From: an uncultured Collinsella sp.
GTDB lineage: Bacteria; Actinomycetota; Coriobacteriia; Coriobacteriales; Coriobacteriaceae
Length of the DNA stretch: 44,213 bases
Direction of reading: 5' to 3'
NCBI GenBank assembly: GCA_958407085.1
Contig: CATYHY010000001.1
Span: 1-44,213 of the forward strand
Shown: positions 5,265 through 39,360 of the stretch, in pieces
Layout of the letters: each line of letters begins with the position of its first letter
How positions within the stretch are numbered: the first letter of the stretch is position 1
Made by a program: the position numbers and the translations under genes
Notes under the pieces: model-generated
What the model was told of the DNA's origin: nothing
Databases searched by the model: none
What the model saw: only the letters and a program-made list of their open reading frames with translations

Positions 5265-5331
5265 AGTTGCGGTGAAATAGGGATTGATTAGGGCTTTTAA
5301 CTGCTAAAACAGTCCCTATTTCACCGCAACT
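5265..5331. repeat. Family A palindromic element, copy 1 (67 bp)
   Basis: AGTTGCGGTGAAATAGGGATTG...CAGTCCCTATTTCACCGCAACT; homologous copies at 19156, 33549 and 39257. Confidence 0.93.
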
Positions 5332-16614: not shown

Positions 16615-16786
16615 CGGAAAGTGCGTCCCGTTTTGAGCGCTGATTCCGGGATGCGCTTTCCGGTTGAGAGCTCTATCGGAAATGACATCCCGTTTCGAGC
16701 GCTGATTGTGGGACACGGTTTCCGGTTGAGGGCTCGACGGGAAACTGCGCCCCGGAATTCGCTTCCAGAATGGGATGTACTTTCCC
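16615..16786. repeat. Family C palindromic array: 3 units, 62-bp period
   Basis: Units at 16615, 16677 and 16739: 16-bp arm (CGGAAA..CCCG), 16-nt loop, inverted arm (GGGA..TTTCCG), 14-nt linker GTTGAG(A/G)GCTC. Confidence 0.88.
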
Positions 16787-19155: not shown

Positions 19156-19222
19156 AATTGCGGTGGAATACGGACTGTTTTGCCTGTTTGAGGGGCTATT
19201 CAGCCCCTATTTCACCGCAACT
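19156..19222. repeat. Family A palindromic element, copy 2
   Basis: AATTGCGGTGGAATACGGACTG...CAGCCCCTATTTCACCGCAACT, 67 bp. Confidence 0.9.
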
Positions 19223-20227: not shown

Positions 20228-20530
20228 TTTGTCTCAATCTGTAACATGTGGCGGCTCAAAAAGGGTCTACGTGTTACAGGTTGAGACAAAAGGTTGGAGC
20301 TGAAGAAATGTCTCGATCTGTAACATCTAGAAGCGGAAATTGGGTCTACTTGTTACAGATTGAGACAAACCAAAACCGTCCGGCAGAAAATCTCAATCTG
20401 TAACATCTAGCAGTGAAAACGGGGTCTACGTGTTACAGATTGAGACAAACGGAGCTGTCCCTCGGAATGATCTCGATCTGTAACATCTAGACATCAAAAG
20501 CGGGTCTAGATGTTACAGATCGAGACGTTT
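20228..20530. repeat. Family B palindromic array 1 (4 units)
   Basis: TCTCRATCTGTAACA-N25-TGTTACAGATYGAGA units starting 20232, 20311, 20391 and 20471. Confidence 0.96.
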
Positions 20531-20553
20531 GCCTGGGTGGGTGTCCCGTCCCA

Positions 20554-21810
20554 TCACATCCCCGTTAGCAGCACGATGTCGAGAGCCGTCACAATGGCAC
20601 CGATCCCTACGAGCAACGCGTTGAGCGGGCGCGAGTTGGCGTATTTGCCCATGACACGGCGTGAGCTGGTGAGCCGTATGAGCACAAAGACCGTAATCGG
20701 CAGTTGAAGCGACAGCAGTGCCTGACTCCAGATGAGACCTTCAAAAGGATTCGGGACGACCAGGCACGCCGCCACTGCACCGACGAAACAGGCTGCCACC
20801 CCGATCGAGGAATGTCGGTCGTGGATGTCGTATTCCTCGTCGAACATGCCCGCCGAAATGGTGCCCGCCGCCATGCCCGCCGTCACACTGCTCGATAGGC
20901 CCGCAAACAGCAGCGCCACCGCAAAGATGGTCGAGCTCGCCGGGCCCAAGATGGGGGAGAGCGTGGCCGCTGCGACAGCGAGGTCGTCTACGACCATGCC
21001 GTGCGCAAAGAAGGTCGTTGCGGCCAGGATGACCATGGCCGAGTTGATTGCCCAGCCCACGCCCATCGAAAAGAGCGTGTCGAAGAGTTCGTAGCGCAGG
21101 CGTTCTTCGATAACCTGCTCGCCTTGGCCTTCGAAGTGCATGGATTGGATGACCTCGGAGTGTAGGAAGAGGTTGTGTGGCATAACGACCGCACCCAGGA
21201 CACTCACGATAATCGCGGCAGAGCCAGTGGGCATACTGGGCGTGATCCAGCTTGCGGCGGCTTGCGGCCAGTCGACCTTGACCAGCGCAAGCTCGGCTAA
21301 AAACGAAAGTCCTACCACGCCCACGAAGGCGATGATCCATTGCTCGGCGCGTTTGTAGGAGCTTGTCATGAGCATGGCAATCGATGCCGCCGCCACGATG
21401 ATGCAGCCGGCGCGTACGGGCAGGCCAAAGAGCATTTGAAGCGCGATCGCGCCGCCCAGCACTTCGGCCATGGCGGTGGCGATGGTCGCGAGATAGGCAC
21501 TGGCGAGCACCGTGCGCCCAACGAAGCGGGGGAGGTAACGTGTCGTGGCCTCGGCAAGGCAGGCGCCCGTGGCGATGCCCAGGTGCGCCGCGTTGTGCTG
21601 CAACACGATGAGCATAATCGTGGACAGCGTGACGATCCACAGCAGCGCGTAGCCAAACTGCGAGCCGGCGGCCATATTGGAGGCCCAATTGCCCGGGTCG
21701 ATAAAGCCGACGGTCACGAGCAACCCGGGGCCGATATGCCGCGCGATGTCGAGTCCTCCGTGGCCACCGGTGCGCGGGGAGCCAAAGTGATGTTTGAGAT
21801 GGTTGAGCAT
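20554..21810 (-). CDS. mntH: Nramp family Mn2+/divalent metal transporter
   Basis: GPGLLVTVGFIDPGNW, GAVVMPHNLFLHS, SQALLSLQLP; SD AGGAG favours ATG 21810. Confidence 0.93.
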   Translation of the reverse strand: MLNHLKHHFGSPRTGGHGGLDIARHIGPGLLVTVGFIDPGNWASNMAAGSQFGYALLWIVTLSTIMLIVLQHNAAHLGIATGACLAEATTRYLPRFVGRTVLASAYLATIATAMAEVLGGAIALQMLFGLPVRAGCIIVAAASIAMLMTSSYKRAEQWIIAFVGVVGLSFLAELALVKVDWPQAAASWITPSMPTGSAAIIVSVLGAVVMPHNLFLHSEVIQSMHFEGQGEQVIEERLRYELFDTLFSMGVGWAINSAMVILAATTFFAHGMVVDDLAVAAATLSPILGPASSTIFAVALLFAGLSSSVTAGMAAGTISAGMFDEEYDIHDRHSSIGVAACFVGAVAACLVVPNPFEGLIWSQALLSLQLPITVFVLIRLTSSRRVMGKYANSRPLNALLVGIGAIVTALDIVLLTGM

Positions 21811-21870
21811 GGTGCGCTCCTGCGTGCCGTTTGTTTGACGCCGCAAAGGATACCCGTTTTAGGCTCAAAA

Positions 21871-21886
21871 GTTAACCAAGACTAAC
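21871..21886. promoter_or_regulatory. Candidate DtxR/MntR-family operator upstream of mntH
   Basis: GTTAACCAAGACTAAC imperfect palindrome flanked by A-tracts, about 60 bp upstream of the start. Confidence 0.45.
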
Positions 21887-21931
21887 AAAATTGCTGTATT
21901 TGAATAGGATGGTGAAGGGGGGCTGCCGAAA

Positions 21932-22153
21932 TGTCTTGATCTGTAACAACTAGGGATGGAAATTGGGTCTAGGTGTTACAGATCGAGACAGGAAGAAATG
22001 GTCCTATGGAATATCTCGATCTGTAACAGCTGACCGCCAAAACCGGCCCTTCGTGTTACAGATTGAGACATTCGGAGCCGTCTCTCAAAAACATCTCAAT
22101 CTGTAACAGCTAGTCGTCGAAGTTGGGTCTTCCTGTTACAGATTGAGATGTTT
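21932..22153. repeat. Family B palindromic array 2 (3 units)
   Basis: Left arms at 21934, 22014 and 22094; right arms at 21974, 22054 and 22134. Confidence 0.96.
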
Positions 22154-28870: not shown

Positions 28871-29578
28871 ATGACTGACCAAGTTTTTGACCGAGCACAG
28901 CTGGCCGAAGCCGTCGGCAGCGATATTGCCGACATGGCTCACTTTTGGATGCTGCGGAAGTTTCAATTCCTGGAGCCGGCGCGCGAGCGGTTCGAGATTA
29001 TCGTCGATCCGTGGCTCAGCTATTGCGAGGAACCTTCTCAAAACGAAATCATGGCCTACAACATGGCGTTTACCGATTGGCTGCTGTTTGAGCGCCCCTA
29101 TTACCACGGCAAGACGCTGTTGGAACTGTATGTGGACGAGCCGCCAGCGTCAATTTCTCCAGCTTCGCTCGGGCGACTTAAGCGGGTGCGTGACACGCAG
29201 TATTTCTCGTGCTTTGGCATTTTGGACAAGGATCCCGCGACTGGCATGGTCGTGCTGGAGGATACGCGCACCGACCGTCGCTTTGACGTCTACGACCCAC
29301 ATATCGTGCAAAAGGAGCACTGGAACGATGGCGCGATTGCGGTGCGACTCGCGTGCGTCGACGATGTCTGGCTGACGGCGGGGCAGCTCTACCTGTATGA
29401 CGTCGCGCGGCTGAGCGACACGGCGGTCGACGGGCCGGGCGCGGTGCATCCCGAGGACCTAGAGGACGGTTTCGACACCTCGTGCATCAGCTTCTTTTTG
29501 CGCCTGGTCCGCGACATCATGGGTGCTCAGGGGCGCTACGTAAAGTCGCTCAATATTTACGAGCAGGAGTGGGAGTAG
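28871..29578 (+). CDS. Hypothetical protein (acidic, 235 aa)
   Basis: Strong SD GAGGAGG and plausible codon usage; no family confidently recognised. Confidence 0.75.
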   Translation: MTDQVFDRAQLAEAVGSDIADMAHFWMLRKFQFLEPARERFEIIVDPWLSYCEEPSQNEIMAYNMAFTDWLLFERPYYHGKTLLELYVDEPPASISPASLGRLKRVRDTQYFSCFGILDKDPATGMVVLEDTRTDRRFDVYDPHIVQKEHWNDGAIAVRLACVDDVWLTAGQLYLYDVARLSDTAVDGPGAVHPEDLEDGFDTSCISFFLRLVRDIMGAQGRYVKSLNIYEQEWE

Positions 29579-29611: not shown

Positions 29612-29756
29612 TTTGTCTCGATCTGTAACGTTTAGGGACAAAAAACCGGTCTACCTGTTACAGATCGAGACAGAGGTTAGACGCACGACTGAAAATCTCA
29701 ATCTGTAACAACTAGAGGCTCAAAGACTGTCTTCCTGTTACAGATCGAGACGTTTG
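29612..29756. repeat. Family B palindromic array 3 (2 units), upstream of nuclease-like gene
   Basis: Arms at 29616, 29656, 29696 and 29736. Confidence 0.96.
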
Positions 29757-29804
29757 CCGACAGCGGCAACGGTGACAACGGCCCATTTCCCTGATGTGGT
29801 GGTG

Positions 29805-30848
29805 ATGAAAGTGTCTAATACCGTTCTTAAACACAAGCAGGCGACACGTAACACCTTGGCGCGGAATAGGATGCTTGCCAGGCTCACGGAGGCGGCTGAG
29901 CAAGGCGTGCTGCTTGTGACGCACGACAATGCCGAGCTCATGTGGCTGCGGCGTCATGTGGGAACCGATGATATTGCGGAGCCCGAGCCGTATTTGTTCT
30001 GCTTTCAGCATGATTGGGTTGTACTGACGCCGGCGGAGCGAGCGCTGCGGACCATTAAAGGGCTTGCGGAGTTTCATCCAGACTGGGCGTTTTGGGGTTA
30101 TGACGCGGCACTTTTGTGGGGTCTGGAGGTGCCGAATGATCTGCTCGGGCCGCGATTTCTTGTTAAGACAGGTTGCTCGGTGCCGCTGAGTGCAGGATGC
30201 CGACTGTTGCGTCCGCAGACGGCGGGTGCGCTCGAGAGTGTTGACGGCGTGCAGGTTACGTCGTTTTGGCACACGGTAGAGGATTGCCTGCTGCGTGCGC
30301 CGTTTTCGTATGGCCTGGCGATTGCCGATTCTGCGTTGCGAGCAAAGGGCGTATCGCGCGATGACTTTTGTGAGCGGCTTCGTATGGATTGTGAAGGCAA
30401 GCGCGGGTATCGCAGAGCGCAGGTGATTGCGTCGTATGCGGACGGGCTGTCCGAAAACGGCGGCGAGTCTCGTTTTCGGGCGTTCTTTATTGCGTACGGC
30501 TTTCCAGTTCCGGAACTGCAGGTGGAGTTTCGTGATCCGCTCGATCCGAGCCAAGTGTTTCGCGTTGATTATTTTTGGAGGCTCGAGGACGGAACGTGCG
30601 TGATTGGCGAGCTGGACGGAAAGGGGAAGTATGCCTTGCAGAACGACGAGGGTCGGGAGTTGATCGACCCATTCGTGGCAGAACGTCAGCGAGAGTCTCA
30701 TCTGACGATGCTTGGGCACAAGGTGCTTCGGTTTACGTTTGATGAGCTCAAGAATCCGGGGAAGCTGGTTGAGAAGATGAGGCTGGCGGGAATTCCACAG
30801 CGGGCCGATTTGGCTGAGGAATGGAGATGCCGGTGGTATGGGCGCTGA
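29805..30848 (+). CDS. AbiEi-like / DUF559 (Vsr-like PD-(D/E)XK) endonuclease-domain protein
   Basis: AALLWGL, VQVTS..TVEDC, LAIADSALR, SENGGESRFR..GFPVPELQ, FRVDYFW, IGELDGKGKY, ERQRESHLTMLGHKVLRF. Start uncertain (29805 or 29871); the 29754 TTG lies in the repeat flank. Confidence 0.78.
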   Translation: MKVSNTVLKHKQATRNTLARNRMLARLTEAAEQGVLLVTHDNAELMWLRRHVGTDDIAEPEPYLFCFQHDWVVLTPAERALRTIKGLAEFHPDWAFWGYDAALLWGLEVPNDLLGPRFLVKTGCSVPLSAGCRLLRPQTAGALESVDGVQVTSFWHTVEDCLLRAPFSYGLAIADSALRAKGVSRDDFCERLRMDCEGKRGYRRAQVIASYADGLSENGGESRFRAFFIAYGFPVPELQVEFRDPLDPSQVFRVDYFWRLEDGTCVIGELDGKGKYALQNDEGRELIDPFVAERQRESHLTMLGHKVLRFTFDELKNPGKLVEKMRLAGIPQRADLAEEWRCRWYGR

Positions 30849-30886
30849 GGGGTGCAGCTGATGCGGATGTGGTTGTTCCTGTCGAG

Positions 30887-31031
30887 TTTGTCTCAATCTG
30901 TAACAACAAGGGACCGTTTGGCCTCGTAACTGTTACAGGTCAAGACAGAAGGTTGGCGCCTGCTGAAAGATCTCAATCTGTAACATCTAGAGGCTGAAAA
31001 CCTGTCTATTTGTTACAGATTTAGACGTTTG
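30887..31031. repeat. Family B palindromic array 4 (2 units), downstream of nuclease-like gene
   Basis: Arms at 30891, 30931, 30971 and 31011. Confidence 0.95.
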
Positions 31032-33548: not shown

Positions 33549-33615
33549 AGTTGCGGTGAAATAGTTCTTGTTTGCAGGCTTGAAGCGCTAAAACAGGAAC
33601 TATTTCACCGCAACT
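33549..33615. repeat. Family A palindromic element, copy 3 (inside cop operon)
   Basis: AGTTGCGGTGAAATAGTTCTTG...CAGGAACTATTTCACCGCAACT, 67 bp. Confidence 0.93.
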
Positions 33616-36500: not shown

Positions 36501-36643
36501 AAACATCTCAATCTGTAACATCTAGCAGGGAAAATGAGCTCTAACTGTTACAGATCGAGATGTTGTTTTGCGTGGCTGAGCTCTGTCTTGATCTGTAACG
36601 GTTCGGCCGGTTTTTGCTGAGCAACTGTTGCAGATTGAGACAA
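36501..36643. repeat. Family B palindromic array 5 (2 units)
   Basis: Arms at 36506, 36546, 36586 and 36626. Confidence 0.94.
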
Positions 36644-39217: not shown

Positions 39218-39360
39218 GGTGCAAAGGGGACAGGTCCATATGCACCAACGTCTTGAAGTTGCGGTGGAATACGGACTGTTTTGGCCTTTTGAGCGGCTTT
39301 TAGTCCCTATTTCACCGCAACTCATGATTGGTGCAAAGCAACCTGACCCCAATGCACCAA
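39216..39360. repeat. Composite: family D halves (39216-39248, 39328-39360) enclosing family A copy 4 (39257-39322)
   Basis: TTGGTGCAAAGGGGACAGGTCCATATGCACCAA / AGTTGCGGTGGAATAC...CTATTTCACCGCAACT / TTGGTGCAAAGCAACCTGACCCCAATGCACCAA. Confidence 0.9.

Follow-up and report, generated by a model that had tools for sequence, protein, structure and literature searches.

A predicted AbiEi-like, Vsr-type nuclease gene framed by its own palindromic repeats in Collinsella: a candidate repeat-and-nuclease partnership

The origin and persistence of short palindromic repeats outside Proteobacteria are largely unexplained; RAYT accounts for REPINs and Ssn (2025) for NTS. A stretch of 44,213 nucleotides (nt) from an uncultured Collinsella sp. 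(assembly GCA_958407085.1, contig CATYHY010000001.1), referred to here as the window, raises the question in a specific form. At positions 29805-30848 of the plus strand the window carries a gene whose translation from an ATG gives a product of 347 amino acids (aa), and this gene lies between two arrays of a palindromic repeat, family B, which also occurs in the window away from the gene. Is the protein a dedicated partner of the palindrome around it, or do the two merely share a neighbourhood? The answer favoured here, with moderate confidence, is that the product is a sequence-specific DNA-binding nuclease with family B as its cognate palindrome, in a partnership of the RAYT/Ssn type run by a third enzyme class. 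Genomes are designated G and their contigs C; the window is contig C1 of its source assembly, G000 (1.67 Mb in 247 contigs, 60% G+C, 73% complete).

The upstream array (29616-29751) comprises two palindromic units, at 29616-29671 and 29696-29751, with arms GTCTCRATCTGTAAC / GTTACAGATYGAGAC and a loop of about 25 nt; folded with RNA parameters, the array gives a z of -8.6. The downstream array (30891-31026) also comprises two units, at 30891-30946 and 30971-31026. All four framing units are 56 nt long with a period of 80 nt, their overall identity to a reference unit is 66-79%, and their arms of 15-16 nt are nearly perfect. The nearest upstream unit ends 54 nt ahead of the ATG, and an alternative TTG start for the same open reading frame (ORF) lies at 29754. 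The pattern TCTGTAAC-N20-40-GTTACAGA has 10 matches in the window as against none in 100 shuffles, and its matches also mark gene-less arrays of four units (20232-20526), three units (21938-22144) and two units (36510-36634). The original prediction for this locus, that a two-unit array stands on each side of the gene and that the repeat recurs without the gene at three other sites, therefore describes the window correctly.

Throughout G000, family B occupies 19 sites on 14 contigs, every one of them outside crude ORFs, and the largest arrays elsewhere in the genome reach seven units. Five of the 19 sites lie within 17 kb of the nuclease gene, where 0.19 would be expected. Generally, family B arms are conserved at about 100% and loops and spacers are variable, a combination that, judged from the repeats themselves, fits better with protein-recognition sites or homogenisation than with neutral decay. 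A long conserved stem or structured RNA was rejected as an explanation for family B, loop covariation among 43 units (by a count of symmetric pairing) being nowhere above that of shuffles. At the gathering threshold Rfam finds only two tRNAs in the window; thus, no curated RNA family covers the repeats. The centre of the family B loop is either an A-run or a T-run with the arms unchanged (window 20238-22142, and genome-wide), so both loop orientations are present inside a single array.

The window gene has relatives in the same genome, and these are framed by palindromes of other families. Close members of its protein family number three in G000, on C1 (the 347-aa ORF), C5 and C24. Copies of family A, with 61-77% identity and a period of 62 nt, stand on both sides of the C24 paralogue (38% identity), and the C5 paralogue (28% identity) lies between two hairpins of family C, of which 30 were counted in G000, falling into three inner-arm subfamilies. 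A second, distant family comprises genes on C14, C137 and C23 and a broken gene on C114. Profile-profile comparison by hhalign connects the first (A1) and second (A2) families with a probability of 88.7 and an E-value of 2.5e-6 over 211 columns, and neither single-sequence hhalign nor the A1 hidden Markov model (HMM) gave a significant link between them; their kinship rests on the profile-profile result together with the fold, a five-sequence HMM being circular for C14 and C137. The model of the C14 protein (pLDDT 86.7) is predicted to share folds with I-Bth0305I (Z 9.9), NGO0050 (Z 9.6), Vsr (Z 9.0) and AbiEi (Z 7.9). C14 is framed by family E, which has five sites in G000, and C137 by family F. 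Across both families, then, five of the seven genes are framed, each by a different palindrome family, and site counts of 19, 23, 8, 5 and 5 would lead one to expect about one same-family framing by chance per genome (approximately 1,300 intergenic regions). In a blind scan for any exact 14-mer common to the upstream and downstream flanks of 988 crude ORFs of G000, 32 ORFs were positive, among them C1, C5, C14 and C137 but not C24.

Some further copies and genes belong beside these families. Solitary family C hairpins (arms TTGCGGTGRAATA...) lie in the window at 5267-5329, 19158-19220, 33551-33613 and 39259-39320, and a family A tandem array of 62-nt period (CGGAAA..GTCCCG / CGGGAC..TTTCCG) at 16615-16744. 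Many public contigs encoding a protein of the C14 type (cluster P0270 and relatives) are about 1.26-1.28 kb long, one such cluster holding 28,274 member sequences, and assemblies seem to break at both of the hairpins that flank these genes.

Beyond these loci, a clade of 360-aa proteins is framed by the family D hairpin, a clade of 413-aa proteins by its own hairpin GTGATTCCCCTAGGGAAAACACG, and the gene G015:C14 by its own hairpin GATGCCGAGCGTTCG. Nine gene-palindrome pairings were seen in Collinsella and others in further genera, in line with the expectation that each paralogue clade would have a palindrome of its own. Outside Collinsella the protein family is present in all 50 sampled genomes of the same taxonomic family and is patchy in three other families of the class. 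In other genera of the Coriobacteriales, at least 14 nt are common to the two flanks at 17 of 40 loci and at 6 of 158 shifted controls; at a threshold of at least 17 nt the counts are 14 of 40 and 2 of 158, an excess over the shifted controls. The complete genome G074 contains a dispersed family of the hairpin that flanks its gene (32 arm hits per strand), and among the 64 arm hits the flanking pair are the sole fully perfect hairpins. Another dispersed family frames the gene in G054 and G155, with 19+18 and 14+10 arm hits respectively. For other Actinomycetota, a set without shifted controls, 8 of 13 loci have at least 16 nt common to both flanks. The gene-palindrome pairing is real, clade-specific and family-wide.

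A separate observation concerns a second hairpin in G074: about 22 hairpins of a ATTGTCGACCGAAA variant are present there, the sole detected family member in that genome is framed by the other hairpin family, and no cognate gene for the ATTGTCGACCGAAA family was found in G074 with the query used.

What kind of protein is encoded between the arrays? The AlphaFold model of the 347-aa product (pLDDT 93, pTM 0.89) divides into two parts. Residues from about 18 to 213 are modelled as AbiEi-like, a winged helix-turn-helix (wHTH) plus the AbiEi C-terminal domain, matching 6y8q_A with Z 8.4 (178 of 195 residues aligned, root-mean-square deviation (rmsd) 7.1, VIA-align) and 1zel with Z 5.3. Residues 216-331 form a predicted PD-(D/E)XK domain of the Vsr/DUF559 type, for which the top match is the homing endonuclease I-Bth0305I (3r3p_B, Z 10.3, rmsd 2.8, 94 residues aligned), followed by the DUF559 protein NGO0050 (3hrl_A) and Vsr (1cw0_A), both with Z 9.7. 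A Vsr-like fold behind an AbiEi-like region is what had been read from the sequence alone, and the motifs cited for it (SENGGES, PELQ, RVD, GELDGKGKY, ERQRE and VLRF) all occur there; the model supports that reading.

Foldseek of the AlphaFold model against the PDB returned only weak rows and nothing at E<=0.001, a profile-based sequence search of the PDB gave nothing meaningful, and NCBIfam gave nothing useful for the 347-aa protein, for which Pfam in turn gave no Y1_Tnp and no GIY-YIG match. In a set of 62 diverse homologues none matches DUF559 at E<=0.01 and three match AbiEi_4 weakly. The alignment of these homologues has D175, E221, S222, R225, G232, D255, E269, G272 and R296 as invariant residues and keeps D271 and K275 in at least 90%. 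The candidate catalytic-type residues of the nuclease domain, E221, D255, E269, D271 and K275, are unchanged in 16 orthologues. For the same 16 orthologues (120 pairs) the ratio of nonsynonymous to synonymous substitution rates (dN/dS) has a median of 0.118 and a range of 0.077-0.296, and the gene is under purifying selection. The protein family is large: a protein library clustered at 50% identity contains 4,321 representatives at E<=0.001, and 367 at the stricter E<=1e-30.

The AbiEi-like part raises another account. The protein would act as an AbiEi-like autoregulator, or else as a nuclease working alone in defence or repair, with the palindromes around the gene for operators, and the dispersed copies would be unrelated REP-like (repetitive extragenic palindromic) DNA or a regulon. 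AbiEi binds inverted repeats in its own promoter. The predicted AbiEi antitoxin fold of the N-terminal two thirds (Z 8.4), the weak matches of PADLOC AbiEi models to two paralogues (E 5e-5 and 9e-6) and the position of an upstream unit 54 nt before the ATG would all suit such a role. An operator would not, however, be looked for 3' of the stop codon, where palindromes are present at 17 of 17 loci, nor in arrays of up to seven units elsewhere in the genome, and the account leaves unexplained the conservation of the nuclease domain alongside many gene-less copies. It also lacks the usual partner. The upstream neighbour (28871-29578, 235 aa) has no Pfam match and the downstream neighbour is an amidohydrolase by Pfam, so an AbiEii toxin gene is not adjacent, as had been noticed at the outset; the annotation of C. 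aerofaciens shows the same two neighbours, and RefSeq labels the nuclease orthologue there "hypothetical protein". This account, whether as autoregulator or as solitary defence or repair nuclease, is regarded as highly doubtful.

How the gene is inherited can be followed in the genus. Orthologues of the window gene (clade 1) are intact in 17 and broken in one of 24 other Collinsella genomes; in G006 the clade-1 locus is interrupted by a contig end. The same two anchor genes surround the gene at all 17 intact loci carrying both anchors (G000 and 16 relatives), and family B units accompany it at 17 of 17 intact loci, one to four upstream and one to four downstream. Such constant synteny indicates vertical inheritance, and for this reason the 17 loci do not count as independent evidence of framing. 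A single syntenic locus per clade was likewise seen for clades 2 and 4, and two copies of one clade were not seen in any of the genomes examined. In a homologue search of genome contigs, 80 of 80 loci among the matches listed are clade-1 Collinsella orthologues. No homologue was found in a phage collection, and the single homologue match in a plasmid collection is a 900-kb Collinsella replicon.

Three genomes, G003, G009 and G016, have a contiguous syntenic empty site, where the gene is missing and family B is represented by a single unit. In G009 and G016 the sequence of this unit is identical to that of the unit standing first upstream where the gene is present, and G003 has a different one; on this comparison, deletion between flanking units probably took place at least twice. 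At greater depth, gene and repeats go together: families B and C are present in 22 of the 24 other Collinsella genomes and in none of 16 from other genera, and the two genus members without families B and C, G014 and G015, are also without the clade-1 gene. Repeats thus go with the gene at this level, where G014, G015 and the 16 genomes of other genera are without both, and do not follow it within the genus in the counts for families B and D.

A different rearrangement is found in clade 3. Directly after a tRNA-like 3' end, the hairpin-gene-hairpin cassette of this clade lies in one orientation in G023, G006, G022 and G004 and in the opposite orientation at the same locus in G021 and G000 (locus L167, G021:C1:462700-466800, compared with L161, L162, L163 and L168). 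The inversion break points fall inside both hairpins; between orientations the interior is 73-76% identical and the flanks mostly 90-94% (in G004 the downstream flank is at 84.6%), and the subfamily of the flanking hairpin differs between orientations, GTTCCT in one and CGGACT in the other. The alignments show that a whole hairpin-gene-hairpin unit can be flipped or exchanged as a block. Such an event fits a partnership of nuclease and repeat and fits also a selfish cassette that homes into palindromes.

Several observations weigh against a partnership. The repeat had been expected to be scarcer where the gene is missing, and within the genus this is contradicted: the gene-less genomes G003, G009 and G016 hold 29, 27 and 39 exact family B units, and the 18 genomes in which the gene is intact average 38.3. 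Family D gives 13.3 arms in 10 genomes with the 360-aa gene and 9.2 in 13 without it (the clade being assigned by frame length and identity only), and as about four of these arms are the gene's own flanks, no difference in counts remains. Across a syntenic stretch of 19 kb, and leaving aside the gene site itself, genomes with the gene have 9, 5, 9 and 6 units and those without it 7, 5 and 2, the last on a cut contig; units are somewhat fewer without the gene, in a very small sample of genomes whose kinship makes them non-independent. Family F was found in G000 solely beside C137, and framing is missing from C23 and the broken C114, two of the four genes of the distant family. In G021, which is 99% complete, family C hairpins of the GTTCCT type are many and the gene is framed by the CGGACT type. 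Pfam DUF559 (PF04480) reaches 14.8 bits (E 0.027) over residues 292-325 only, under the gathering cut-off of 20.6; by score the protein is not a Pfam DUF559 member, nor does it belong to an AbiE toxin-antitoxin pair. Finally, unrelated genes are framed too, an Nramp gene by family B, a Fic gene by family D and an oxidoreductase gene by family C.

The last of these points would suit a view in which a functional tie is absent, and intergenic palindromes accumulate near accessory or poorly expressed genes and acquire a framed look by recombination. The Nramp-family transporter gene (window 20554-21846, minus strand, Pfam E 5e-108) stands between the family B arrays of four and three units, so framing is not restricted to nuclease genes; the regional clustering of family B arrays and the independence of repeat numbers from gene presence within the genus agree with such a view as well. 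It does not readily accommodate five of seven superfamily members being framed, by a different family each, where about one chance framing per genome is estimated, nor the recurrence of an excess over shifted controls in other genera, nor the G074 flanking hairpins as the only fully perfect ones among 64 arm hits. A coincidence of this kind is considered very improbable.

Two of the genes just mentioned have structures of their own nearby. The Fic/DOC gene, with a C-terminal HTH, lies at G000:C60:648-1832 (L203) between family D hairpins about 1.44 kb apart, and family D hairpin pairs with spacing of about 1.44 kb recur in G002, G009, G012 and G020. After the unframed C23 gene comes an inverted repeat, long and AT-rich (G000:C23:12776-13100, L201), whose arms of about 45 nt are separated by about 150 nt.

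Another alternative is a selfish homing-type cassette that lands on pre-existing palindromes, the nuclease cutting the palindrome and the cassette being copied in, with the dispersed repeats spread or maintained by other means. The top predicted fold match is indeed the catalytic domain of a homing endonuclease (3r3p_B, Z 10.3); empty sites hold exactly one unit; and the inverted clade-3 cassette, with breaks in the hairpins and a diverged interior, would follow from replacement or from orientation-blind insertion at a palindrome. In-frame stops are common in homologues, family F is without dispersed copies, and repeats persist in gene-less genomes. Other observations speak against it. Every species looked at has the clade at a single syntenic locus (for clade 1, 17 loci), never with two copies of one clade in a genome, and the dN/dS of 0.118, the lack of phage matches and a plasmid match only to the 900-kb Collinsella replicon point in the same direction. 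Deletion between flanking units accounts more simply for the unit shared by G009 and G016 and for the differing unit of G003. Homing is on balance judged unlikely.

For the partnership of nuclease and palindrome, a mechanism can be proposed. The AbiEi-like winged-helix module would recognise the conserved arm of 15-16 bp, whether paired and inverted on duplex DNA or extruded as a hairpin, and the Vsr-type PD-(D/E)XK domain would nick or cut at or beside the arm. Repair of these breaks by copying or slippage could cause repeat units to be gained, lost, inverted and occasionally seeded, and the nuclease gene itself would stay single-copy and vertically inherited. DNA binding, cleavage and the role of the protein as mover of the repeats are inferred. 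By extension, REP-like hairpin repeats throughout Actinomycetota may depend on AbiEi-like/Vsr-type nucleases for their replication or maintenance, in a partnership that evolved independently and in which paralogues and arms co-diversify; this wider proposal is put forward tentatively.

If true, this would be a third partnership between a repeat and a domesticated nuclease, after RAYT and Ssn, with several paralogue-repeat pairs in a very common human-gut genus. It would explain, in a way open to testing, the repeats at which Collinsella assemblies break, and would give a function to a large unannotated family (the 4,321 representatives above). It would also provide a natural panel of nucleases, each for a different hairpin or cruciform site of 15-20 bp, which might yield programmable hairpin specificity. 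Should the gene merely home into the repeats, it would represent a new kind of repeat-targeting selfish cassette.

Comparison with known systems begins with REP/RAYT. In both, a single-copy, vertically inherited gene under purifying selection lies between copies of its own palindrome, the palindrome is dispersed in intergenic DNA, and different paralogues go with different repeat families. The persistence of repeats after gene loss also has a parallel: in the RAYT literature, decay is described as taking millions of years, and REPIN populations as still large where RAYT was lost recently (10.1101/2021.07.10.451892), and repeats are reported to outlast the RAYT gene (10.1101/2022.05.22.493013, 10.1101/119735). 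The lag seen in Collinsella resembles this; for families B and D no shrinkage of the repeats on loss of the gene was seen within the genus. Unlike REP/RAYT, family B occurs in tandem arrays of 80-nt period, and the enzyme is predicted to be an AbiEi-like binder fused to a Vsr-type PD-(D/E)XK nuclease rather than an HUH Y1 tyrosine transposase. Elsewhere in G000 there is a Y1_Tnp gene, flanked by a motif of a different kind. This IS200-like gene (G000:C22:2080-2889; L202 1081-1890, minus strand) scores 30.7 bits, the cut-off being 23. Inverted copies of the CATTGGGGACAGAC motif, which has eight sites in the genome, flank it on either side, and it is a candidate for a true RAYT that has a repeat of its own within G000.

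A second comparison is with SsnA, a GIY-YIG single-strand nuclease associated with NTS/SRM repeats (Chenal et al. 2025, PMC11893778). Among Ssn homologues, 42% have their own hairpin-forming repeat on either side, each homologue has its repeat variant with hundreds of dispersed copies, and Ssn cuts single-stranded DNA beside its repeat in vitro (PMC11893778). Both systems place a non-HUH nuclease gene between its own hairpin repeats. The original prediction had raised a REP-type system run by a different nuclease class, without knowing of a description of this pairing, and Ssn is a published precedent for a system run by a non-HUH nuclease. For the present enzyme class, the titles, abstract openings and passages covered by the literature searches contain no account that links palindromic repeats to a nuclease of the DUF559, Vsr or AbiEi-like type. 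In the main text of PMC11893778 the words DUF559, Vsr and RAYT are absent. Ssn is a single-domain GIY-YIG protein, mainly of Gram-negative bacteria; unlike it, the Collinsella protein has a predicted PD-(D/E)XK fold. Because the enzyme class differs, the present system is a member of neither REP/RAYT nor NTS/Ssn.

Each half of the protein has its own relatives. Like the AbiEi antitoxin of type IV AbiE systems (6y8q, 1zel), the N-terminal part is modelled with a wHTH and a C-terminal domain fold; unlike AbiE, it is missing the neighbouring AbiEii nucleotidyltransferase and has a nuclease domain fused to it instead. The C-terminal domain resembles Vsr, DUF559 proteins and I-Bth0305I in predicted fold (Z 9.7-10.3). 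The DUF559 consensus is E-x-D-G-x-x-H, and at its position the present family has a conserved D...E-x-D-G-x-x-K, with lysine for histidine. From the Vsr/DUF559/I-Bth0305I nucleases the protein is set apart by its large N-terminal part, predicted to bind DNA, and by a gene that lies in neither an intron nor an intein.

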